In this document: positions 26,562 to 44,521 of the stretch, one piece after another
How the letters are laid out: every line of letters begins with the position of its first letter
Position numbering within the stretch: the stretch's first letter is position 1
NCBI GenBank assembly: GCA_001794125.1
Contig: MGJF01000013.1
Coordinates: 450 to 64,449, forward strand
From: Candidatus Yanofskybacteria bacterium RIFCSPHIGHO2_01_FULL_43_32
GTDB lineage: Bacteria; Patescibacteriota; Minisyncoccia; 2-02-FULL-40-12; GWA2-44-9
Reading direction: 5' to 3'
Length of the DNA: 64,000 nucleotides
The notes under the pieces: model-generated
What the model saw: only the letters and a program-made list of their open reading frames with translations
Told to the model about the DNA's origin: nothing
Databases searched by the model: none
Position numbers and translations under genes: made by a program

Positions 26562-29500
26562 ATGCGGTTCGCAATAATTTTAACGGCTCTTTTGCTTTTT
26601 CCCGCCGGATTTGTTTTTGCCGCCGAAACGCAGATAGACGCATCGGTTGATGTCACAACCGCCGCTCACAACGGCAGCAGTCCGACTGTCGTTTTTACTT
26701 CCGACAACATTGGCTACGCTTTTTACAGTGACAGCGCCGGCACTTGCGCTTACAGCAAGACGATAAACGGCGGGTCAAGCTGGGGAACTCCCGTTACCGT
26801 TGACGCCCAAACGGACTGCAACCATATCGCCGTATGGTATGACGGCTGGACCCCGGGCATTTCCGGAGGATACATTCATATCAGCACCATGGATGCGGCC
26901 GATCTTTGGTATAACCGGCTTGAGGTATCTTCGGACACGCTTCTTTTGGGTTCCACTCCCGTTAACGCCAGCGGCGCCAATCAGGCCGGGGTCTTTACCG
27001 CCGCGGCAAATACTCATTCAATAACAATGGGAACCGACGGAGACGTCTACATGGGTGTTCAGGATGCCGGTGACTCTTTTGTCGTCAAATGTTCGGCATC
27101 CTGCGATACGGCGGACAATTGGACGGAGGCGGGTTTGGTCAGCCCGTTCGATCTGGATGAGGACTGGCTGATACTGATGCCGTTATCTGGCGAGAATATT
27201 TTGGCTATCCGTTGGGATATCTCCGGAAATGCCATCCAGTCAAAAGTTTACAACGATACTCTGAATACCTGGGACGTTCTTTGGGCCAATGTGGACAGCA
27301 ACGCTCTTGAAAACACGACTTACGACGCCGCTTTCGGCGCTACGCTTAAAAGGTCCACCGGGGACATGTATCTTGCCTATGCCGGTGACTACGGGACACT
27401 CGGCACCGATGACGATATCCGCACGGCCGTTTACAGCGGCGGGGCATGGACAGCCAAGACCAACGTTCTGACCAACGACACCAAGGGCATCACCGGGGTA
27501 AAAATAGCCATAGACGACAATACGGCCGATGATGTCTACGTTGTTTACAGCGCCCGCGCCACGGCCGGAACCGCCGCAACAGGAAATATTTACTATAAAA
27601 AATCATCGGACGGAATGGCCACATGGGGAACGGAACAGGGTCCGATAAACACTACGGCCGGAGACTTATACGGCTCAAGGGTTAATATTATTTCTGACCA
27701 AAGAATTTACGTTACCTGGGACCTGCCGAGCGCGGACGACATTCTCGGAACCACCATTGCGGACCTTGCTCCGCCGGCCATTACGGTTGGTTCTGCCGGC
27801 ACACAGACCGTTAATCTCACCATCCCCTCCGCTGACGCTTATGTCGGAGGCGCTTTTACTTTTCTGCGGGACAATGAATCGGCCAACGTTACCCAGATAA
27901 TTATCTCTGAAACGGGAACGGTAAATGCAAACACCAACCTTTCGGACGTAAAACTTTACTACAAAGCCCAGGCGGCCTGTGATTCGGCGCTTCCGGGAGA
28001 CGCAACCCTCTTCAATTCTTCGGCCGGCACTTTTAGTGGATCGGAAAAAGCCGCTCTTACCGGAACGATGAGTGTGAATGGAACGCAAGTATGCGTTTAT
28101 GTCCAGATGGACATCGGCTCCGGTGCGATTGCGAATGACACGCTCGAAATAGAAATAGCCAATCCTTCTGCCGATATTGCCGTAAGCGCCGGCGGCATCT
28201 TGCCGGCAACCTCCGTCGCCATAAGCGGCACCACAACCCTGATCTCCAACAACGCTCCCGCTGCTCCCACAAATGTTTCACCACCCAACAGCACTTCTGT
28301 GGTCACTCTCACTCCGATGCTTGAGGCCTCCGCGTACAGCGACAACGAAAGCGATACCCATGCCGCAACCCAGTGGCAGGTCACGGCCGTTTCCGGCGAC
28401 TACTCAAGTTCGGTATTCGACTTTACGTCCTCGACGGGAGAAACCTCACGGGTGATACCGGCAGATACGCTTTTGAACGCAACCACTTATTACTGGCGCG
28501 TCCGATACCGCGATAATTTCAATGCGACCCACTGGTCCAATTATTCCACAGAGACTTCATTCCTAACCGCCAATAATGCCCCGGCTGCTCCCACAAACAT
28601 CTCGCCAATTAACGGCACCTCGGTCACCACCTTAACGCCGATGCTTGAGGCCTCGACATACAGTGATCCGGAAAGCGACACCCACGCCGCAACCCAGTGG
28701 CAAGTTACCTCAACCCCCGGAGATTATTCCAGTCCGGTGTTTAATTTCACCTCCATAACCGCGGAGACCTCGCGAGTAATCACGGCAAGCACGCTTTCGA
28801 ACACCGCGACTTATTACTGGCACGTCAGGTATAGAGACAATATCAACCCAACCCACTGGTCTAACTATTCAACTGAAACGTCTTTCATTACCGCCCTAAC
28901 CCAATTATCCATCAAGATCGAGGCCCTAAGCGGCAAGACGGAATATTTTATCGGCGACAACGTGCCCCTGGACGTTCAGGTGACCAATTTCACCACCGGC
29001 TCGCCAATAAACGATGCTGCTGTGACGGTAAGCGTTTTTGATCCGAGCGGAACCAAGATAATCACGGATCAGGCAATGGCCTATATATCAAACTCCAGCG
29101 GAATATACAGATACACTATGGTAAACCCTACGGTCAATGGAACGTATGTTTATGAAATTAAGGCCGTAAAGAGCGGCCAGTCCGGCTACGGAGCGGCTAA
29201 TTTCCAAGTCGGCGCATTGGCCAGCACAAAAGCCTTGAGCGAAAGCATCCAGGCCTCCCAACAGAAAATCAGTACCGCCACGCTCTCGGACGTAGGAAAC
29301 CTTGAATTGGGAAAAACCTACCGAGCCAAACTGACACTCGAAAATTTTGAAAGCGAGCTGACCGATTCCTTCAGTTTGCCGACCATAACAATCTATGACT
29401 CTTTGCGGAATGTGTTAATAAATTCATTGCCCATGACAAAAATAAACGACGGAACTTACGAATTTACGTATCTTACCGGTGCCGGCCAAGTATCCGGTTT

Positions 29501-30185
29501 GTGGGAAGCGGCGGTAAGCATACCTGTGACGAGCACCAATACCATTTCCAGAAATGATTACTTCCAGGTGACGGGCGCTCCGGCGCAGGTTAAAATAAAC
29601 AGTATCAGGGACTCCACCGTTCCTTCCATCACGGCGAACATCACCATCACGAACGAGGGTAATGCGGCGTTCGAATATCACTACGAATACTGCATAGTCG
29701 CCGAACAGCCCATTCAATGTATCGGCGTCAATGCTTTAGCGTACGGTCTAGGCGCAAAGCTCATTCAGCCCGGAGAGGATTTCACAACCGACCTCATTCT
29801 CCAAGTTTCCAATCCCGGCACGTATTATTTCAAGGTCGGGGTGTATTGGGGAACCGAAAGATCCGGAGCCGCCCTGCAATTCCAGGCAAAAATCCAGACG
29901 TTGCAGGTTCAGCAATCGCCGGGAGGCGGAGGGGGCGGTCCGGCTCCGGAACCGGCAAAACCGCCAAGCATCAGTCTGGAGCAAATCTGGAATCTTCTTG
30001 CCAGTCTTCTTACCCAAGTAACCGGCGCCGGCCAAAAAATAGGCGTCATTGAGTCCCGCCTGAACTATCTTGAGCGGATATGGTCACAACTTCAGCCGCA
30101 AATCCAGCCGTCCAAAACCGCCGCTCCGGCCAAAGCGGCTCCGATCTCAAAAATAAAACCGGTAATAAAAATACGGATAAAATGA
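26562..30185 (+). CDS. Giant secreted surface protein (1207 aa) with tandem FN3-like repeats and Gly-rich C-terminal coiled region
   Basis: It has a signal peptide and two ~105-aa repeats of NAPAAPTN.SP.N.TSV.TLTPMLEAS.YSD.ESDTHAATQWQVT....YYW.VRYRDN..THWSNYSTETSF. A GGGGGG tract lies near the C-terminus. Confidence 0.7.
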   Translation: MRFAIILTALLLFPAGFVFAAETQIDASVDVTTAAHNGSSPTVVFTSDNIGYAFYSDSAGTCAYSKTINGGSSWGTPVTVDAQTDCNHIAVWYDGWTPGISGGYIHISTMDAADLWYNRLEVSSDTLLLGSTPVNASGANQAGVFTAAANTHSITMGTDGDVYMGVQDAGDSFVVKCSASCDTADNWTEAGLVSPFDLDEDWLILMPLSGENILAIRWDISGNAIQSKVYNDTLNTWDVLWANVDSNALENTTYDAAFGATLKRSTGDMYLAYAGDYGTLGTDDDIRTAVYSGGAWTAKTNVLTNDTKGITGVKIAIDDNTADDVYVVYSARATAGTAATGNIYYKKSSDGMATWGTEQGPINTTAGDLYGSRVNIISDQRIYVTWDLPSADDILGTTIADLAPPAITVGSAGTQTVNLTIPSADAYVGGAFTFLRDNESANVTQIIISETGTVNANTNLSDVKLYYKAQAACDSALPGDATLFNSSAGTFSGSEKAALTGTMSVNGTQVCVYVQMDIGSGAIANDTLEIEIANPSADIAVSAGGILPATSVAISGTTTLISNNAPAAPTNVSPPNSTSVVTLTPMLEASAYSDNESDTHAATQWQVTAVSGDYSSSVFDFTSSTGETSRVIPADTLLNATTYYWRVRYRDNFNATHWSNYSTETSFLTANNAPAAPTNISPINGTSVTTLTPMLEASTYSDPESDTHAATQWQVTSTPGDYSSPVFNFTSITAETSRVITASTLSNTATYYWHVRYRDNINPTHWSNYSTETSFITALTQLSIKIEALSGKTEYFIGDNVPLDVQVTNFTTGSPINDAAVTVSVFDPSGTKIITDQAMAYISNSSGIYRYTMVNPTVNGTYVYEIKAVKSGQSGYGAANFQVGALASTKALSESIQASQQKISTATLSDVGNLELGKTYRAKLTLENFESELTDSFSLPTITIYDSLRNVLINSLPMTKINDGTYEFTYLTGAGQVSGLWEAAVSIPVTSTNTISRNDYFQVTGAPAQVKINSIRDSTVPSITANITITNEGNAAFEYHYEYCIVAEQPIQCIGVNALAYGLGAKLIQPGEDFTTDLILQVSNPGTYYFKVGVYWGTERSGAALQFQAKIQTLQVQQSPGGGGGGPAPEPAKPPSISLEQIWNLLASLLTQVTGAGQKIGVIESRLNYLERIWSQLQPQIQPSKTAAPAKAAPISKIKPVIKIRIK
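28251..28890 (+). repeat. Two tandem ~315-bp direct repeats (about 80% identical) inside the giant gene
   Basis: Repeat 1 is about 28251-28568 and repeat 2 about 28569-28890, read directly. Confidence 0.7.
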
Positions 30186-34211: not shown

Positions 34212-34628
34212 ATGATCATGGATAAAGTATCGAAAAACAAAAGAAGCGACATCATGCGAGCGGTAAAAAGCAAAAATTCAAAAATCGAGATCTCCTTGAT
34301 GCAAGAATTGAGAAAAAGAAAGATCGCTTACAAAAAACATGTTCCCAACCTCCCCGGAACTCCGGATATCGTTCTGAAAAAAGAAAAAGTCGCCATATTC
34401 GTGGATTCTTGTTTTTGGCATGGATGCAGGTGGCACGGAACCATGCCGGCTTCAAATAGAAAATTCTGGACTCAAAAAATATCCGCCAACAAAGCCAGAG
34501 ACAAAAGAGTGACCGTCATGTGCCGAAACTTGGGCTGGAAAGTGTTGAGATTTTGGGAACACCAACTGGAAAAAGATTTTGATGGAATAGCGGACAGAAT
34601 TCAAAAACAAGCGACTCTAATCCGGTAG
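34212..34628 (+). CDS. vsr: Very-short-patch repair endonuclease
   Basis: The protein contains SDIMRAVKSKNSKIE, LPGTPDIVL, VAIFVDSCFWHGC and LGWKVLRFWEHQL, which are Vsr signatures. It converges on the dcm gene and overlaps its 3' end by 12 nt. Confidence 0.85.
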   Translation: MIMDKVSKNKRSDIMRAVKSKNSKIEISLMQELRKRKIAYKKHVPNLPGTPDIVLKKEKVAIFVDSCFWHGCRWHGTMPASNRKFWTQKISANKARDKRVTVMCRNLGWKVLRFWEHQLEKDFDGIADRIQKQATLIR

Positions 34629-35702
34629 ATTCTCCAGGTGGTTTTTTATGCTTGAAGCGATAGCCCGTCCCAATAAAACCGGGACAGCATTGCCTATCAG
34701 GCGGGCCGTTTTGGTCATGGAGACATTATCTCCTTCATTGAATCGATAGTGAGAAGGGAAGCTTTGTAATAATGCCGCTTCTCTCAAAGATATGGCTCTG
34801 TTTTGAGAAGGATGACCGAATCTTCCGGTCCCGAGATTTACGCAATGCGTCGTGATCGTCGGTGAAGGTTCATCCCATTTCATCCTGCCGTAAACTGAAG
34901 ACATGTATGAATGCCCGCTGGCCTTTTTATAACAAGCCGGCATAAGTTCCGGTTTCCAACTTTTGGCGTTCCCGCCGTTCTTCGGCGTAGCCATTACTCT
35001 TCTTTTGTTCAAGGGACTCAATTTGCTCGCCCTGTGAAGCGGATCTTTTCGATCGACTTCCCCGTCTTTTATGTGTTTCAAACCAAAGATGGCATCTCGG
35101 ACCGTCACGAGGTTATTTTTGTCTTTAGTTTCCGGAACCAGATTTATTTCTCCGAATTTCGAGGCCAATAATACCAACCTTTTTCTTTTTTGAGGAACGC
35201 CGTACTTCGAGGCATCCACGACTCGGTAAAAAACATGATATTTGTTTTTTCGCAAAGAAGCCAGAAACTTTTTGAATATGGGATACTTTTTTTCTTTCGC
35301 GAGATCGGGAACATTTTCCATGGAAATTATGGCCGGTTTGGTATGGGCTATCAAACGACCGAATTCCTCGAGCGGTTCCCATCTTTTATCGCTTTTTCTA
35401 TGGGCGGAATTTTTACGATTCAGAGCCGAAAATGGTTGACACGGAGCGCAACCGACGAGGATTTTTATTTCGGCATTTCCAAATAATCCGTTCAATTCGG
35501 AAGAAGATAGATCGGAAACATTTCGATGAACGAATTTTGTCCGGTTGTTTTTTTCGAACGGATATCTGCACGAGTTGTCGATGTCGACTCCCGCCACGAC
35601 ATCGAATCCCTCCAAGACAAAGCCGTGAGTCAAACCACCCACACCGCAAAATAAGTCGACGACTTTTGTCATCCCCAACATTTTCTTTCGAGACGACTCC
35701 AT
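34617..35702 (-). CDS. dcm: DNA (cytosine-5)-methyltransferase M1
   Basis: The motifs are I DLFCGVGG, IV CAPCQPFS, VI ISMENV, VIII YGVPQKRKR and X IGNAVPV. Confidence 0.85.
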   Translation of the reverse strand: MESSRKKMLGMTKVVDLFCGVGGLTHGFVLEGFDVVAGVDIDNSCRYPFEKNNRTKFVHRNVSDLSSSELNGLFGNAEIKILVGCAPCQPFSALNRKNSAHRKSDKRWEPLEEFGRLIAHTKPAIISMENVPDLAKEKKYPIFKKFLASLRKNKYHVFYRVVDASKYGVPQKRKRLVLLASKFGEINLVPETKDKNNLVTVRDAIFGLKHIKDGEVDRKDPLHRASKLSPLNKRRVMATPKNGGNAKSWKPELMPACYKKASGHSYMSSVYGRMKWDEPSPTITTHCVNLGTGRFGHPSQNRAISLREAALLQSFPSHYRFNEGDNVSMTKTARLIGNAVPVLLGRAIASSIKNHLENLPD

Positions 35703-35739
35703 ATATCGATTATAGAATAAATAAATGAAAAACTCGAGA

Positions 35740-37902
35740 TCAGCTCTTGTTGAAAACTATCAGTTGAGCTTTTTCCGGAAGGACTAAAGTGGGGTAGATA
35801 AATGGGTTACCATTCCAACCGGCCGGTTTCTTCCCCGTAAATTCGACTTGAAAAATCCACAATACCGGCTTGTTGCCGGCCACATCAGCCGCGACGTCGG
35901 TTCCGGCCAAAACACCTTGGGCAAGAAGTCCGTTTTCGCCGGGAGCGCGATTCGCTTTTCTGAACTTCAGCATAATGCCATTTTTGAATTCTTGGCTCAA
36001 ATAGGAAAGAATGGCGGGTATTTTTTTGTCGTTCCACACATTCGTCCCACCCGTTTTTATCATTGAAATGAGTTTCTTGGCTTCTTCCGTGCTTATCTTT
36101 TTTCCTTCCCGGCCCTTATTTCGATCTGTATATTCGGGAAATAAAGAGCTCAATTTGCCAATCACTTTCGTGAATACGTCATCCGCTTCGGGACTTTTGA
36201 AGAATGGATAATTCGGGTATATCTGCGTGCCCGGAACAAGTATATCGACCTTGCGCGCATCCAGAACGCACCTGCGAGTGGCTCGAATGTCTTTTGCGAT
36301 TCTGACGGGAAATGACTCGAGCGAGCCCTTATTTTTTTCGATAAACTTTCTCAATTCTTCGTCGCTTATGTAAATCTGTCGGAATCTCTCATGCAATTGA
36401 GGCGGCAAGAAAACGCGAGTATAGGGTAGGGTCTTTTTTCTGTAGCCGAACATCCGAGCGTGTTGATACATAGTATCCATTTGAGCGATCTTCGCTTCAC
36501 GGATATAATAAGTCACGAGAAGATTTTTTATCGCAAGGCCTCGGCCGAGAGTGTTGCCTCCAATCAAAAAATTGAAGTATTTGCTGTAGGTCAATTCGTC
36601 ACCAGTGGTATTTTTGTTGATGAGCAAAATCTCTCGAGAATTGAAATTTCTGCTGATGATTTGAAGTAAAGTATCCAAAGACGGGACACTTTTAGTTTGT
36701 TTTTTCAGAGAGTCGTAAGAGGTCTCCATATCGTTATACAAGTGATGGGTTTTGCTCGTAAAAGCCCCCGCCAGGTCTCCGAGATATTTGGTCACGAGGT
36801 TGGCCACTTTTTCTTGATCTTTGGTTTTGACGCTTGGGTGACAAAGCAGTTTATAACCCTTGTCTTTTCCGTCGTCCGGCCATCCGAACTTTTCTCCGGC
36901 CGCGGCGGAAGATAAAAGAAAAAATCTTATGGAATTTTTCAAACCATTCGGAAGTTCCGCCGTGTCCCCATCGAGAAGTTCAATCCTTTCATTCCCGTCG
37001 ATTAGAGATACGAGTTTATTCTTTGAAGGGTTGGGTTCAGAAAAGAAAGTTTCCCCCCCGACATAATCTTTACCCGGGCGTAACAATTCGATGAAAGACG
37101 GCCTCGATTTGTTATCGATATTTTGAAGAACGATTCCCGATGGAGTTCCGGTCACGCTCACGAAAACATGCCGAGGCAAAGCTTTGCGCAAAGAATCTAT
37201 GGCGGGATCATGTATCAATTGGTGAATCTTGCTTGGAGCTATGAGCGGATTTTTCTTGGAGCGTTTGAGATTATTCGTATCTAACGTGGCCTGATCTCCC
37301 TCGTCGTCAAAAATGATCGCCGGATATTCGCTCGCTTCTATTTTGCGCAAAAACTCTATGGCTTGATGCAACCGCGTCGCTCCCTTCGAGCAAACGATCA
37401 CGATACCGCCAATCCCGGATTTCAAAATTTGTTTGGCCTGTTCGACCTCTCGTTTGAAATGCGTTTTTGAGTAAACTCTGATGCCTCCGGGCAGTCCGTT
37501 GGCGAAATCCTGTCGGGTTTGTTCCACCAGACGATTATTGTTGCTCGTGATCACGACGACCGCTTGGAACTTGTTGTCAAATGCCAAAGCGGAACTGGTA
37601 ATCATGGCCCGGGTTTTTCCGCTTTGAATTCGGCCATAAACCAGGCCGGTAGAAACCGGCTCGTCGACTTTAGCCACCCTATCGGTTGGTCCATCGCCTT
37701 CTTTTCCGACTTCTCCAGCTTTCACCTTGTCTTCATAAGTTTTCACGATCGCGGAAACTATCTGTTCGGCATTTTCGGTCGCTTCTTTTCTTGCAAGTTG
37801 AACTAACTTCGGCTTGACCGCATCCAATGTTTCTTTGAAGTTTTCTCCGTTTTTATTTATTGCCGTCATGAAAAAATAATCGTTCAAATTTGAACTTGCC
37901 AA
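35740..37902 (-). CDS. 720-aa P-loop NTPase (Walker A GRIQSGKT, Walker B-like IIFDDEGD); architecture reminiscent of Z1-domain proteins associated with Dcm methylases
   Basis: The motifs are read from the translation. It lies in an operon between the two C5-MTase genes. The Z1 assignment is from memory of the family and is not verified. Confidence 0.45.
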   Translation of the reverse strand: MASSNLNDYFFMTAINKNGENFKETLDAVKPKLVQLARKEATENAEQIVSAIVKTYEDKVKAGEVGKEGDGPTDRVAKVDEPVSTGLVYGRIQSGKTRAMITSSALAFDNKFQAVVVITSNNNRLVEQTRQDFANGLPGGIRVYSKTHFKREVEQAKQILKSGIGGIVIVCSKGATRLHQAIEFLRKIEASEYPAIIFDDEGDQATLDTNNLKRSKKNPLIAPSKIHQLIHDPAIDSLRKALPRHVFVSVTGTPSGIVLQNIDNKSRPSFIELLRPGKDYVGGETFFSEPNPSKNKLVSLIDGNERIELLDGDTAELPNGLKNSIRFFLLSSAAAGEKFGWPDDGKDKGYKLLCHPSVKTKDQEKVANLVTKYLGDLAGAFTSKTHHLYNDMETSYDSLKKQTKSVPSLDTLLQIISRNFNSREILLINKNTTGDELTYSKYFNFLIGGNTLGRGLAIKNLLVTYYIREAKIAQMDTMYQHARMFGYRKKTLPYTRVFLPPQLHERFRQIYISDEELRKFIEKNKGSLESFPVRIAKDIRATRRCVLDARKVDILVPGTQIYPNYPFFKSPEADDVFTKVIGKLSSLFPEYTDRNKGREGKKISTEEAKKLISMIKTGGTNVWNDKKIPAILSYLSQEFKNGIMLKFRKANRAPGENGLLAQGVLAGTDVAADVAGNKPVLWIFQVEFTGKKPAGWNGNPFIYPTLVLPEKAQLIVFNKS

Positions 37903-38975
37903 TCCGGGGGCAAAACGATCTTGTCATAGCCGCGCTTGAACATGAACGGCTCTATCTCTTTGCTCGACGGAAACTCGGCATCGAATTCCCGCTCCACATC
38001 CGCAAGCAATTTCGATCCTAGAGTGGCTCTGTATTTTTTGCTCAAGCAAAGCTTGTACCAGTCATCCAAGTCGTTGATGGTTATGATGCCCTGTATCCTG
38101 TCGCTCCAACCGACCTGTTTCAGCAACGTCTCGATCGCTTCTCGTTCGGAATCGAGGCAAACGATGACGATATGATCCGCCGTCAGGTTGTCGGCTATAT
38201 CTTCGACAAGCTCCGGCGTAAGCGTCAAATGCTTGACCTGAATCGCCGGACCAAAGTTGGCCCATATATCCAAGCCCCTGTCGGCGGCGTTGGTCACACC
38301 GACTCGATAGAGAGCGGCCGGTAAAATGAGCTTGGTTTGTTTTGAATCGACGCCGAGCACCATCTTTATGAACCTCTCGAAATCCTTCAGAATCTCCTCG
38401 TCTTTGTTTCCGATCTCCAGAGTTATCTGTGCCCTCAAAGCCCGGACGATCGTGCTAAAAAGAGCGTAAACCAATATTTCATACATTTTGTCTATGCTTC
38501 GACGCAACCCCGGCGTCGTTTGGAAAATGGCGACAAGCTCTTTGAGCGAAAAGCTGTCGGCCGTGGATTTTTTGATATAATTTTCGACATCCCGGACAGA
38601 CGAAAGTCGCGCCTCCAACGCTTTATAAATATAAGCTTCGACCAGCCCCTTGTTTTTCTTATTTATTACTCCAAGCTGGGCGAGCAATTCGGGCGGCATG
38701 GCATTCGCTTCAAAAACATTGTCCTGGTATTTCTGGCTGGAAGTGCTTCTGCGACCGACCAAAAGCATCGAAACTTCGTCTCGCCAGCGTTTGGATATAT
38801 TGCGATATGACTGAAGATCGTTCAGGTCCCAACCCTTCTCGGTTCTGTGGTGAAGCAAAATTTCCGCTATCTGTATCGGCTTGTACAAATGGACTCTGGA
38901 TTTGCGTATGATCAGGTCCAGAGCAGATTTTGAAAGATTTTTAGTGGGCATAAATTCGTCGTATTTTTTGTTCAT
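37884..38975 (-). CDS. 363-aa uncharacterised protein, candidate nuclease/effector partner of the NTPase (AIPR-like or restriction endonuclease candidate)
   Basis: It overlaps both the upstream MTase gene and the downstream NTPase gene. Possible PD-(D/E)xK-like segments are GLDIWANFGPAIQVK and CLDSEREAIE. Confidence 0.35.
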   Translation of the reverse strand: MNKKYDEFMPTKNLSKSALDLIIRKSRVHLYKPIQIAEILLHHRTEKGWDLNDLQSYRNISKRWRDEVSMLLVGRRSTSSQKYQDNVFEANAMPPELLAQLGVINKKNKGLVEAYIYKALEARLSSVRDVENYIKKSTADSFSLKELVAIFQTTPGLRRSIDKMYEILVYALFSTIVRALRAQITLEIGNKDEEILKDFERFIKMVLGVDSKQTKLILPAALYRVGVTNAADRGLDIWANFGPAIQVKHLTLTPELVEDIADNLTADHIVIVCLDSEREAIETLLKQVGWSDRIQGIITINDLDDWYKLCLSKKYRATLGSKLLADVEREFDAEFPSSKEIEPFMFKRGYDKIVLPPDWQVQI

Positions 38976-39948
38976 TTGAAAATAATCCGGATTGATTCAA
39001 TTTTTGTTCCGGTTTTTGAGACATCGCGAAGATCATGGCCCGGGCCACCGCTTCTATTTTAGGCACCACCACGCTATTGCCGGCCTGCTTCCGGACTTGA
39101 GTGTCCGGGACGATGATTTTGAATGTATCCGGGAAACCTTGCAAACGCAACATCTCTCTGGGGGTGAGGCGGCGTCGACCATTTACGGTGACGTAGTTAT
39201 AAGAGCCGTTCGCTCGCAAAGCGCATGAGTAAGGATGAATTCCGATGTTGCCGCTTTTGTTTTCGTGCCACACTGCCGGCCTGATATGATCCGTTTTATT
39301 TTGTTCTTTGAGGTTGGCTTGGAGCTTGGCTTTGAAATAGTCGCTCAAAAAATGTTTTTTGTCTATTTGACCCTCCGGCTCGAGGATGTCGGAAAGAGTT
39401 TTTGATTCAATCCCATTTTTAGGAAATTCGAAGGGATGATCCTCTTTGAAACCGACCAACATTATGCGTTCGCGTTTCTGCGGCACACCGAAATCCAATC
39501 CGTTCAGAACCTTATAGTGAACAAAGTAGCCGAGTTTCTCGAGACGCTCGAGGATCACCTTGAATGTCCGGCCCTGATCATGGGTAGTGAGTTGTTTTAC
39601 ATTTTCGAGAAGAAACGCCTTCGGCTGTTTCACTTTCAATATTCTTTCGACATCGAAAAATAGCGTTCCTCTCGTGTCGGCAAACCCCAGTTTATTTCCT
39701 ATGATGCTGAAAGCTTGGCAAGGGAAACCGCCGGTAAGAATATCGTGATCGGGAATCTCCTCCGCCTTTATTTTAGTTATGTCGCCAAAGGGTCTCTCGC
39801 CGAAATTGGCCTCATACATGTCTTGGCACGCCTTGTCCCACTCCGAAGTGAACACGCATTTGCCGCCGGCTCGTTCAAAAGCGATTCGGATTCCGCCGAT
39901 GCCGGCGAAGAGATCGATAAAAGTGAATTTTTTCTTTTTATGCCCCAT
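38941..39948 (-). CDS. DNA (cytosine-5)-methyltransferase M2
   Basis: The motifs are I DLFAGIGG, IV GGFPCQAFS, VI LLENV, VIII FGVPQKRER and X AGNSVVV. Its variable region is distinct from M1. Confidence 0.85.
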   Translation of the reverse strand: MGHKKKKFTFIDLFAGIGGIRIAFERAGGKCVFTSEWDKACQDMYEANFGERPFGDITKIKAEEIPDHDILTGGFPCQAFSIIGNKLGFADTRGTLFFDVERILKVKQPKAFLLENVKQLTTHDQGRTFKVILERLEKLGYFVHYKVLNGLDFGVPQKRERIMLVGFKEDHPFEFPKNGIESKTLSDILEPEGQIDKKHFLSDYFKAKLQANLKEQNKTDHIRPAVWHENKSGNIGIHPYSCALRANGSYNYVTVNGRRRLTPREMLRLQGFPDTFKIIVPDTQVRKQAGNSVVVPKIEAVARAMIFAMSQKPEQKLNQSGLFSNEQKIRRIYAH

Positions 39949-42401: not shown

Positions 42402-42686
42402 ATGGATAGGATCAAAAATATGGGGTGGGGGCAGTGGATACTGATCGGCGTGGCTGGATCAATCTTTTTGGCCATCATCGGGTCGACGGAAGCCGGGAAG
42501 GTATTGCTCGGCTTGGCATTTATCATCGGGCTGATACTCTTGTATTTCCTGCCGGCGATAATAGCCGGGAGAAGGAGGAACCCGGATGAAAAACAGATCA
42601 TGATCCTCAATGTGTTCCTCGGATGGACATTCGTGGGATGGGTGATCGCCCTGATCTGGGCGTATAAAGAACACCCCAAAAAATAA
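42402..42686 (+). CDS. Superinfection immunity-family membrane protein
   Basis: It has two TM helices and the motif FLGWTFVGWVIALIWAY, typical of the Imm_superinfect family. Confidence 0.65.
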   Translation: MDRIKNMGWGQWILIGVAGSIFLAIIGSTEAGKVLLGLAFIIGLILLYFLPAIIAGRRRNPDEKQIMILNVFLGWTFVGWVIALIWAYKEHPKK

Positions 42687-42743: not shown

Positions 42744-44510
42744 TTGTTATTATCAGGATATCACGAGATATACTGGCGAGGCAAACCGGAAGCTCAAGCT
42801 ACCATGACAAATATAAAAACCAATATGGCGATAGGTTATGGCCGAGTGTCGTCTCTGAACCAAGAGATAACTGGATACTCTTTGCCGGCACAGGAAAAAA
42901 TCATAAGAGATTATGCTGAAAAACATTCTCTTGAAATCGGTAAGAGGATTATACTTGTTGCCGAATCGGCAAGCGGCAAAGTCGACAGAAAAAAATTCCA
43001 CGAGATGCTGGATTTAGTGAAGAAAGAGGGCATATGCAACATGATAGTTGAATCGGTGGACCGCTTGGCGAGAAATTTCCGGGAAGCAAATAAAATTGAC
43101 GAGTGGCTTATGTCAGACGGAAGAAATCGAATCCATTTCATAAGAGGGTCCACAGTCATGCATAAAGATTCAGAATATCAAGAATGGTTTTTCTACAGAA
43201 TGAATTTAGCCGCCGCCGAAATGGGAACTAAACAGATTTCAGCGAATGTGAGAAAGGGACAAAAAGAAAAAATCGCCCAGGGCGGATTTCCAAGCAAACC
43301 GCCACTCGGATACCGAACTACCGGGGAACGAGGCCACAAAACACACGAGATAGACCCAGAGAAAGCTCCTTTCATCAAGCAGATGTTTGAACTTTATTCA
43401 TCCGGCCAGCATTCCTTGAAATCGCTGACGAAATTGCTCGAGCAAGAAGGCCTCCGCAATAGATCGGGAAGGCCTATTGTAAAAAGCCGCGTAGCGGAAC
43501 TTTTATCCGATCCGTTTTACTACGGCGACATGAGGTGGGGCGGAGAAATCTATCTGGCTGGACACAAACCGCTGATAAGCAAGGAACTTTACGACCGGGT
43601 TCAAAAGATAATGCACTCGAAAACTACGCCGAAATACCGGAAACACGATTTCCTATTCAAACAGCTTATGAAGTGCGAGATCTGCGGAGGCACCATAACC
43701 GGTGAAATACAAAAAAACCACATCTACTACCATTGCAACGGATATCGGGGCTGTAAAAGGCGGATTTCGGCCCGTGGGGATGTATTGGAAGCCCAGATCA
43801 TAGAAGTGTTCGACTGGTTTGAGAACGGCCTCGACCCGGAAGAAGTGGGCATCGTCCAAGAAATATTGAAGGAAGACCATAAAGATAAGATTCAATACAT
43901 GCAGAACCAGATCTCTGAAATACACAGCCGGCTGAATACTCTAACCCAAAGAGAAAAGAGGGATTATGAAAACATGCTCGATGGGAAAACAACCAGAGAA
44001 GAACACGACCAGAGGATAAAAGAGTGGGGCCTGGAAAAACAAGCCCTAATAGACAAAGAATCGAAACTGGCGCAAAACAATACCCATGATCTGTTGCTTG
44101 GCAGTTCGTTTATGGATCTGGCCCGGCGGTCCCGGGAAATCTACAATGGGCTAAAAGATGATGTCCGGGCTAAAAGGGAGTTTTTATCGCTGATATTTTC
44201 GAACCTTACATTGAATAACGGAATTCTCAAGAAATTCTATAGAACCCCGGTCCTCCGCATCCGGGAAAGAGCAGAGCAGGCGAAAAATTTCGAACCAACC
44301 AAAAACCCCAGTATTAATGGGGCTTCTGGCGTTCTTTATCATCAACCAATAGAACCAATGCTTCCCTCGGCTTCTAAAAATTACGAACCGAAAGAATCAC
44401 TGATTCTAAGCCACGATTTAAAGGTTGAACCTACAAATCACGACCTCTGCTCCGCGGCCAGGACTCGAACCTGGAACCATCTCCTTAACAGGGAGCCGCT
44501 CTACCATTGA
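42744..44510 (+). CDS. Large serine recombinase (resolvase catalytic domain + recombinase domain + Zn ribbon)
   Basis: It contains IGYGRVSSLNQE (the catalytic Ser motif) and a Cys cluster CEICGG...YYHCNGYRGC. The 3' end of the ORF runs antisense through tRNA-Asn. The true start is probably ~42804-42825. Confidence 0.8.
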   Translation: MLLSGYHEIYWRGKPEAQATMTNIKTNMAIGYGRVSSLNQEITGYSLPAQEKIIRDYAEKHSLEIGKRIILVAESASGKVDRKKFHEMLDLVKKEGICNMIVESVDRLARNFREANKIDEWLMSDGRNRIHFIRGSTVMHKDSEYQEWFFYRMNLAAAEMGTKQISANVRKGQKEKIAQGGFPSKPPLGYRTTGERGHKTHEIDPEKAPFIKQMFELYSSGQHSLKSLTKLLEQEGLRNRSGRPIVKSRVAELLSDPFYYGDMRWGGEIYLAGHKPLISKELYDRVQKIMHSKTTPKYRKHDFLFKQLMKCEICGGTITGEIQKNHIYYHCNGYRGCKRRISARGDVLEAQIIEVFDWFENGLDPEEVGIVQEILKEDHKDKIQYMQNQISEIHSRLNTLTQREKRDYENMLDGKTTREEHDQRIKEWGLEKQALIDKESKLAQNNTHDLLLGSSFMDLARRSREIYNGLKDDVRAKREFLSLIFSNLTLNNGILKKFYRTPVLRIRERAEQAKNFEPTKNPSINGASGVLYHQPIEPMLPSASKNYEPKESLILSHDLKVEPTNHDLCSAARTRTWNHLLNREPLYH

Positions 44511-44521
44511 GCTACCGCGGA
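44450..44521 (-). tRNA. tRNA-Asn (anticodon GUU), CCA not encoded
   Basis: The reverse complement is TCCGCGG-TA-GCTC-AATGGTA-GAGC-G-GCTCC-CTGTTAA-GGAGA-TGGTT-CCAGG-TTCGAGT-CCTGG-CCGCGGA-G. Confidence 0.8.

Follow-up and report, generated by a model that had tools for sequence, protein, structure and literature searches.

A HaeII-type pair and a predicted CglI/NgoAVII-class variant without an R subunit as two probable 5-methylcytosine-based modules in a Candidatus Yanofskybacteria genome

Five genes that probably form two modules

Here, we analysed a stretch of 64,000 nucleotides (nt) from Candidatus Yanofskybacteria bacterium RIFCSPHIGHO2_01_FULL_43_32 (contig MGJF01000013.1; the whole stretch is referred to as the window), focusing on five genes that encode a Vsr protein, two C5-cytosine methyltransferases (M1 and M2), a Z1-domain NTPase (H) and a 363-amino-acid (aa) protein (R). 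The region very probably consists of two independent 5-methylcytosine (5mC)-based modules placed head-to-tail on a mobile island. Module A (37884-39948), formed by M2 and R, is, as judged from its sequence, an ordinary HaeII-type Type IIP restriction-modification pair, and module B (34212-37869), formed by H, M1 and Vsr, is predicted to represent a CglI/NgoAVII-class variant, widespread and conserved, without the R subunit of that class. The succession M2-R-H is most economically explained as a coincidental juxtaposition, because no relative of either module has kept this order and the divergence of the proteins does not exceed that of orthologues that are not linked. With the architecture weighted as the main claim, two modules together with a restriction-like module B are the likely best explanation of the region. 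The genes are as follows:

34212-34628, plus strand: vsr (V), 138 aa
34617-35702, minus strand: M1, C5-cytosine methyltransferase, 361 aa
35740-37902, minus strand: H (NTPase), open reading frame (ORF) of 720 aa counted from a TTG start
35740-37869, minus strand: H from its preferred start, ATG 37869, 709 aa; DEAD-Z1-C helicase-like motor
37884-38975, minus strand: R, the 363-aa ORF, HaeII-family Type II restriction endonuclease
38941-39948, minus strand: M2, C5-cytosine methyltransferase of the HaeII-type cassette, 335 aa

All five ORFs had been placed correctly by a first-pass annotation, and the methyltransferase and Walker motifs that it named can be read in the translations: FCGVGG, PCQ, ENV, QKRKR and GNAVP in M1; FAGIGG, PCQ, ENV, QKRER and GNSV in M2; and Walker A GRIQSGKT with Walker B IIFDDEGD in H. 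The convergence of vsr on M1 with an overlap of 12 nt was likewise confirmed. The four minus-strand genes had been said to overlap one another by 19-35 nt. This holds for M2 and R, whose 35-nt overlap is kept identically in related cassettes, but the 19-nt overlap of R and H needs the TTG start at 37902, and the H stop (35740) and the M1 start (35702) do not overlap at all, being separated by an AT-rich spacer of 37 nt. In the alignment, the H homologues start where ATG 37869 lies, and a separate gene prediction for an identical contig (L165) also starts H there, giving 709 aa. ATG 37869 is thus the more likely start, which leaves a 14-nt gap between R and H. Promoter and terminator scans gave counts at chance level, with no terminator-like or promoter-like site in the spacers. 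Given that M2, R, H and M1 lie closely packed on the same strand, their co-transcription is plausible.

M2 and R as a HaeII-type restriction-modification pair

The 363-aa protein had been regarded as unassignable, with an AIPR-like protein or a PD-(D/E)xK nuclease as candidates. Instead, R matched the Pfam family RE_HaeII (PF09554) from profile position 2 to 338 of 338 (E = 1.1e-126; 423 bits against a cutoff of 25), and it also matched PADLOC REase_II (E = 2.8e-117). RE_HaeII was the only Pfam family found for R at E <= 0.01, and both AIPR (PF10592) and a novel PD-(D/E)xK nuclease were rejected in view of the full-length HaeII matches. An uncharacterised type of system had been proposed unless its proteins should match a well-characterised Type II or Type IV enzyme, and for this gene such a match was found. 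More than 3500 homologues of R were obtained, many of them at 80-94% identity, while a sequence search against solved structures found no homologue.

M2 matched Pfam DNA_methylase (E = 2e-99) and aligned end to end with M.HhaI, which recognises GCGC, with the variable region included (E = 6e-76, phmmer). The site of M2 is therefore expected to have a GCGC core, and RGCGCY is predicted. NgoAI, a Type IIP 5mC system, is listed with this site (PMC6789123). There are 67 RGCGCY sites in the window, with no sign of avoidance. On this basis, M2 would methylate the GCGC-core site, expected to be RGCGCY, and R would cut the unmethylated site with Mg2+ alone, requiring no NTPase.

We then compared the neighbourhoods of 75 metagenomic loci whose HaeII-family enzymes share 49-86% identity with R. 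At every locus with upstream sequence, an M2-type methylase gene overlaps the 5′ end of the R gene, as in the window, and the encoded methylases are mostly 66-84% identical to M2. The window therefore agrees with the HaeII/NgoAI type in the end-to-end fit of R to its profile, in the M.HhaI-like methylase and in the overlap of the two genes. It differs in what follows R: a same-strand vsr gene comes after R in 56 of the 75 loci, usually within about 15 nt, whereas the window has no vsr directly after R and carries H-M1-Vsr at that place. An NTPase gene is absent from 74 of the 75 related cassettes; only one (L127) has a Z1 gene within reach, and the product of that gene is just 24% identical to H.

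Eleven HaeII cassettes carry a second C5 methylase gene downstream of vsr, directly after it in nine of them, which suggests that C5-methylase modules or genes tend to gather around a shared vsr gene. The order M-R-Vsr-second C5 methylase, with the last protein 38-58% identical to M1, was seen in L095, L096, L100, L103, L104, L105, L117 and L122. Independently of the window, a Z1-type system also borders a HaeII cassette at L127 (589-7975), where genes for a C5 methylase, a GHKL ATPase (HATPase_c_3 and Hypoth_Ymh) and the distant Z1 protein come directly after M-R-Vsr.

H resembles the motor subunit of CglI and NgoAVII

The 720-aa ORF had been likened to Z1-domain P-loop NTPases, and this identification was borne out by Pfam Z1 (PF10593; E = 5e-37). 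PADLOC Helicase_II matched H over its full length (E = 7.6e-82). An AlphaFold2 model built with 96 homologues reached a predicted local distance difference test score (pLDDT) of 88.7 and a predicted template-modelling score (pTM) of 0.86, and showed the two-lobed superfamily 2 (SF2) fold also found in PriA, Mfd, RecQ, SNF2 and HsdR. A separate model of residues 536-709 had a pLDDT of 95.4, and this C-terminal domain matched only one structure at E <= 0.001, the C-domain of H.CglI (6F1S; E = 1.1e-6, template-modelling scores 0.57/0.66). The C-domain of CglI binds DNA (PMC5861437).

Searches of the Protein Data Bank by sequence, with H alone and with a profile of 96 sequences, found no match, so the kinship of H with H.CglI is visible solely by fold and by way of the NgoAVII locus. 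The latter came to light when a tblastn search of plasmid records also matched chromosome-sized records of Neisseria gonorrhoeae. The operon found there is NgoAVII, in which genes for a C5 methylase and a PLD+B3 endonuclease precede that of the Z1 protein, the H homologue; the two H proteins share 27% identity over residues 41-699 (BLASTP, E = 3e-54). Moreover, the features described for DEAD-Z1 motors, namely a Walker A xQSGKT with Gln, a Walker B DDExD and the QxxR spacing of motif VI (PMC5861437), are shared by H: RIQSGKT, FDDEGD and QHAR...R are invariant across the 96 homologues. Compared with the H/H motif described for CglI (PMC5861437), the first His (CHPS) is invariant, and the position of the second is a Gln both in the window and in the clade consensus.

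By sequence and by model, H is thus a full-length homologue of the motor (H) subunit of CglI and NgoAVII. Functional data on Z1 modules had been described as very sparse, a view that no longer holds, since this subunit has been characterised biochemically and structurally (PMC4267653, PMC5737866, PMC5861437). Recognition and cleavage in CglI both come from the R subunit, which H also needs for its ATPase activity (PMC4267653).

Could H carry a nuclease of its own? Scanning its invariant columns revealed no conserved acidic/Lys, HxK or HNH pattern and no nuclease motif. A nuclease hidden in the C-terminal 175 aa was rejected as well, as the model of this part matches only the DNA-binding C-domain of H.CglI. 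The H family is modest in size: at 50% identity, its representatives number 401 proteins at E <= 1e-30, of which only some twelve reach the closeness of the M1-linked clade described below, and no fused extra domain was found in these close relatives.

An M1-type methylase gene accompanies the Z1 gene

M1 matched Pfam DNA_methylase (E = 4.5e-59), and its closest solved structures were the catalytic domains of eukaryotic DNMT1 (E = 6e-26), ahead of M.HaeIII and M.HhaI. Homologues of M1 are annotated by the Joint Genome Institute as '(cytosine-5)-methyltransferase 1'. M1 and M2 had been suggested to form a hemimethylation pair, as an alternative to two specificities; rather, each belongs to its own module, M2 being M.HhaI-like and M1 nearest to DNMT1. 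Vsr scored 125.4 bits with TIGR00632 (cutoff 97.85) and matched Pfam Vsr (E = 3e-22), and it is predicted to be a bona fide very-short-patch (VSP) repair T:G mismatch nickase, encoded beside the C5 methylase gene M1.

To define the partners of H, one genome per species was taken and then searched by tblastn with the five window proteins. This yielded a clade of 28 non-redundant loci from at least 8 phyla, with Z1 proteins 34-74% identical to H. An M1-type methylase gene adjoins the Z1 gene in all 28 (29-65% identity to M1, at least 45% except at one locus); its usual position is downstream on the same strand, with a start no more than about 160 nt away, and five loci have it in convergent orientation. 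A neighbouring Vsr gene, in several orientations, was seen in 15 of the 28 (16 of 29 when the window is counted), and the window layout of H followed by M1 with a convergent vsr recurs in L010, L011 and L022. Starting from M1 instead, four homologues (58-65% identical) were picked from contigs without a previously known Z1 gene, and a Z1 gene lay directly upstream of every one. The proposed co-conservation of the NTPase with a methyltransferase is therefore well founded for M1 (28/28 and 4/4), with Vsr joining them at roughly half of the loci. The annotation of a Rhizobium plasmid likewise lists Vsr, a Z1 protein and Dcm together.

Neither a HaeII enzyme nor a PLD R subunit was found in any of the 28 clade loci, and no HaeII enzyme lies beside the closest relatives of H (71-74% identical). 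In contrast, distant Z1 homologues on plasmids (25-27% identical) belong to operons of the canonical M-R(PLD)-H type, so that the clade of the window H is the clade without R. Next, 375 flanking ORFs were clustered all-against-all, and the 87 immediate neighbours were scanned against Pfam and PADLOC. Further recurrent neighbours were serine recombinases (seven loci), small helix-turn-helix proteins (five) and GHKL ATPases (three). Besides Vsr, no recurrent nuclease partner was found among the flanking ORFs, only scattered and unrelated restriction-modification genes; an unannotated recurrent nuclease partner of H was rejected by the same clustering and neighbour scans.

The missing R gene would also fit a decaying remnant of a CglI-like M-R-H operon, in which H outlasted the loss of R and was kept by co-transcription with a useful methylase. 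Disrupted copies point the same way: H is frameshifted with M1 intact at L172 (2836-4957), and in two metagenome-assembled genomes M1 is disrupted with H intact, by an in-frame TGA at L006 (7561-8655) and by a frameshift at L025 (12135-13179). These copies could be assembly errors or genuine decay. However, about 35 loci from many phyla have an intact H gene of full length (34-75% identity), none of them with a PLD+B3 R subunit. Within the clade, the ATPase motifs are all invariant, along with many residues of the C-domain. Invariant motifs in intact H proteins across phyla argue for purifying selection on a working protein rather than drift, and the R-less state marks the whole clade instead of scattered tips. 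We therefore consider decay a highly improbable explanation.

Full-length H homologues were also found in cyanobacteria (53 loci, L029-L083, for example L081:9462-12112), at about 30% identity to the window H. No M1-like, M2-like or Vsr genes were detectable in their flanks of up to 10 kb. A glutamine synthetase gene is among the neighbours in about 20 of these loci, and many share conserved chromosomal neighbours. Directly upstream of the Z1 gene, most have a conserved ORF of 155-160 aa without a Pfam match, which overlaps the Z1 start where checked.

The two modules are probably juxtaposed rather than coupled

The alternative to two modules is one five-gene system, in which the HaeII-family R was recruited as the nuclease of H, M1 serves as a second protective methylase and Vsr as a repair accessory, with ATP-dependent cleavage of an RGCGCY-type site as the outcome. 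The arrangement itself invites this explanation: the M-R-H order and the 14-nt gap between R and H mirror NgoAVII and the plasmid homologues, where R abuts or overlaps H, and the four genes are co-directional without a terminator-like site in the spacers. An H gene beside a nuclease gene is suggestive too, since H of CglI is inactive without R (PMC4267653), and L127 offers an independent HaeII cassette followed by a Dcm-GHKL-Z1 system.

The neighbourhoods of both modules speak against it. The juxtaposition is unique to the window lineage, with no HaeII enzyme in the 28 clade loci or beside the 71-74% identical relatives, and 74 of the 75 HaeII loci lack any Z1 gene. The proposal of one conserved four-gene system thus fails from either side: no locus with a close Z1 protein has a HaeII enzyme, and the single HaeII locus with a Z1 gene has a distant one. 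The proteins show no divergence suggesting a new partnership, R being up to 86% identical to an enzyme from a Z1-less cassette and H 74% identical to its counterpart at R-less loci. Furthermore, the known R partner of H is an unrelated PLD+B3 protein, and HaeII is a stand-alone commercial enzyme that needs only Mg2+. A recombination breakpoint was sought by comparing the R/H junction with relatives, which had no sequence in common there. Taken together, a single five-gene system is improbable.

Tight packing on one strand, then, does not make one system, and half of the region corrects to a textbook HaeII-type enzyme. The uncharacterised remainder is narrower than the first-pass annotation had proposed, comprising a Z1 motor, a Dcm-type methylase and Vsr, with no nuclease subunit.

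Possible modes of action of module B

For two independent modules, the question is what module B does. We tentatively favour a restriction-like mechanism, which the sequence relationships make possible but fall well short of making probable. H would be a double-stranded DNA translocase with a CglI-type C-terminal DNA-binding domain, and it would act on DNA lacking M1 methylation; we infer the latter from the finding that, within the clade, H never occurs without M1, whereas Vsr is optional. Site recognition would probably come from M1 or from an H-M1 complex. The DNA-damaging step would be supplied in trans, most likely by the linked Vsr-family nickase or else by a host nuclease; alternatively, module B may interfere with its target non-nucleolytically. 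Vsr would in addition repair the T:G mismatches that arise from deamination of 5mC, probably serving both M1 and M2. A Vsr-like protein has been reported to damage DNA when the cognate methylation is missing, thereby stabilising a solitary methylase (PMC12907096).

The same report can be read in favour of a different role, in which module B serves 5mC housekeeping or repair and not defence. M1 would be effectively solitary, Vsr would nick T:G mismatches, and H would assist very-short-patch repair or methylase access. By analogy with the stimulation of Vsr by MutS and MutL in Escherichia coli, H could help in finding mismatches, in unwinding the strand that was nicked or in the turnover of Vsr. 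MutL interacts with Vsr physically and functionally (PMC2715241), Iyer et al. 2008 likened operons of this kind to VSP or mismatch repair (PMC2292703), and a MutL-like GHKL ATPase is added in three of the clade loci. Vsr is, moreover, the sole nuclease ever linked to module B (16 of 29 loci, including the window), no nuclease is detectable in H, and two loci keep H intact with M1 disrupted. On the other side, H tracks M1 in every locus and Vsr in only about half, while a helper of Vsr would be expected to follow Vsr. Over its full length, and also in the C-domain, H is homologous to the motor of a restriction enzyme, and the modules lie on mobile elements amid restriction-modification genes. 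Canonical VSP repair is not known to need a dedicated helicase, because DNA polymerase I does the nick translation, which also counts against a repair role. Repair or epigenetic maintenance is the main rival to a restriction-like module B, and we judge it rather unlikely.

Several observations weigh against our preferred explanation of two modules with a restriction-like module B. The H clade has Gln in place of the second His of the CglI H/H motif. The M2-R-H succession of the window, with a 14-nt gap between R and H, repeats that of M-R-H in CglI and NgoAVII, and R may have become functionally coupled to H secondarily. No nuclease was identified for module B, so that 'restriction-like' draws on homology and linkage. 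L006 and L025 combine an intact H with a disrupted M1, and if these disruptions are real, H is not lethal without M1. Finally, the cyanobacterial clade, with no M1-like, M2-like or Vsr gene detectable in flanks of up to 10 kb, implies that DEAD-Z1 motors are not restricted to restriction-modification, and it may represent a use of this motor outside such systems.

If H-M1(-Vsr) were a distinct class of 5mC-based immunity or genome surveillance, a DEAD-Z1 translocase would be targeted by M1 and would dispense with a dedicated nuclease, either by turning the Vsr nickase into an effector on unmethylated DNA or by translocation alone. Such a class is speculative at present. The motor of CglI and NgoAVII is inert without its PLD nuclease/recognition subunit, and yet a clade of about 35 loci in at least 8 phyla keeps only a methylase and often Vsr. 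The source of target recognition and of DNA damage in module B, once worked out, would extend the mechanisms of ATP-dependent restriction. It could also show a repair nickase doubling as a restriction effector, which would be consistent with the DNA damage by a Vsr-like protein in the absence of cognate methylation (PMC12907096).

Comparison with known and predicted systems

Module A is already known in kind, while module B lacks the R subunit, one of the features that define the CglI/NgoAVII class. The systems CglI, NgoAVII and BceSIV combine a methylase (M) with an R protein of PLD nuclease and B3 domains and an H protein of DEAD, Z1 and C domains (PMC4267653, PMC5737866, PMC5861437). The window H is homologous to the last over its whole length, including the C-domain match to the crystal structure 6F1S and the QSGKT, DDExD and motif VI QxxR variants, and a C5 methylase partner, M1, is present in module B as well. 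The differences lie in the PLD+B3 protein, which gives CglI recognition and cleavage and is missing from the window and the approximately 35 clade loci; in a helical hairpin of about 40 aa that the window H has in addition at its N-terminus; in the Gln at the second H/H histidine; and in gene order, as the methylase gene follows H instead of lying upstream of R, often with Vsr as the third gene.

Iyer, Abhiman and Aravind predicted in 2008 operons of a GHKL ATPase (MORC/paraMORC), a Z1-type superfamily II helicase, a restriction endonuclease (RE)-fold nuclease, Dcm and Vsr (PMC2292703). Their helicase motif DThhQxuRhFG (PMC2292703) corresponds to DTMYQHARMFGYR in the window H, and the association with a cytosine methylase and a Vsr-superfamily nuclease is shared, as is the GHKL ATPase in 3 of the 28 relatives. 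In contrast, the GHKL ATPase and the 'novel RE-fold' nuclease, both constant members of the predicted operons, are missing from the window and from 25 of the 28 relatives, and no recurrent RE-fold gene was found in the flanks of the Z1 clade.

The Z1 domain is also shared with MzaC of the MZA system (PADLOC; NCBIfam NF041933), which matched H locally at residues 407-520. With 59.5 bits against an equivalog cutoff of 1500 for NF041933, H was rejected as a member of MZA, and no other Mza component is present. PADLOC labels H-type proteins as a Type II 'helicase domain protein' with no partner logic; the family has thus already been flagged. Our literature search found no description or test of a Z1-Dcm-Vsr module without a nuclease subunit.

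Mobile island and other features of the window

Two further features bear on the mobility of the modules:

42744-44510, plus strand: ORF of a large serine recombinase (Pfam Resolvase, Recombinase and Zn_ribbon_recom)
44449-44521, minus strand: tRNA-Asn (ARAGORN and Rfam), overlapped by the 3′ end of the recombinase gene

The recombinase and tRNA-Asn are likely the integration end of a mobile island carrying both modules. Direct att repeats near tRNA-Asn were sought to delimit the island, and none was convincing. Repeatedly, Z1-M1 modules have serine recombinase genes and further restriction-modification genes as neighbours, which fits mobile or defence islands. Next to the recombinase, a 94-aa membrane ORF lies at 42402-42686, and its product on the identical contig (L165) has a match to Pfam Imm_superinfect (superinfection immunity), which hints at a prophage-like island.

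As for the composition of the window, CTAG is strongly rare (10 observed against 50 expected per strand, a ratio of 0.2), GTAC and GATC are moderately under-represented, and CpG is not depleted (observed/expected 1.22). An attempt to guess the M1 site from palindrome under-representation was uninformative at 64 kb. Elsewhere in the window, four tRNA genes (Trp, Thr-GGT, Tyr and Thr-TGT) cluster on the minus strand at 4706-5399. At 26562-30185, an ORF of 1207 aa has a signal-peptide-like N-terminus and repeats of about 300 nt (28238-28537 and 28562-28861, 72% identical); its region is the most GC-rich of the window (0.50-0.54 against about 0.44 elsewhere), and its product is probably a repetitive surface protein.

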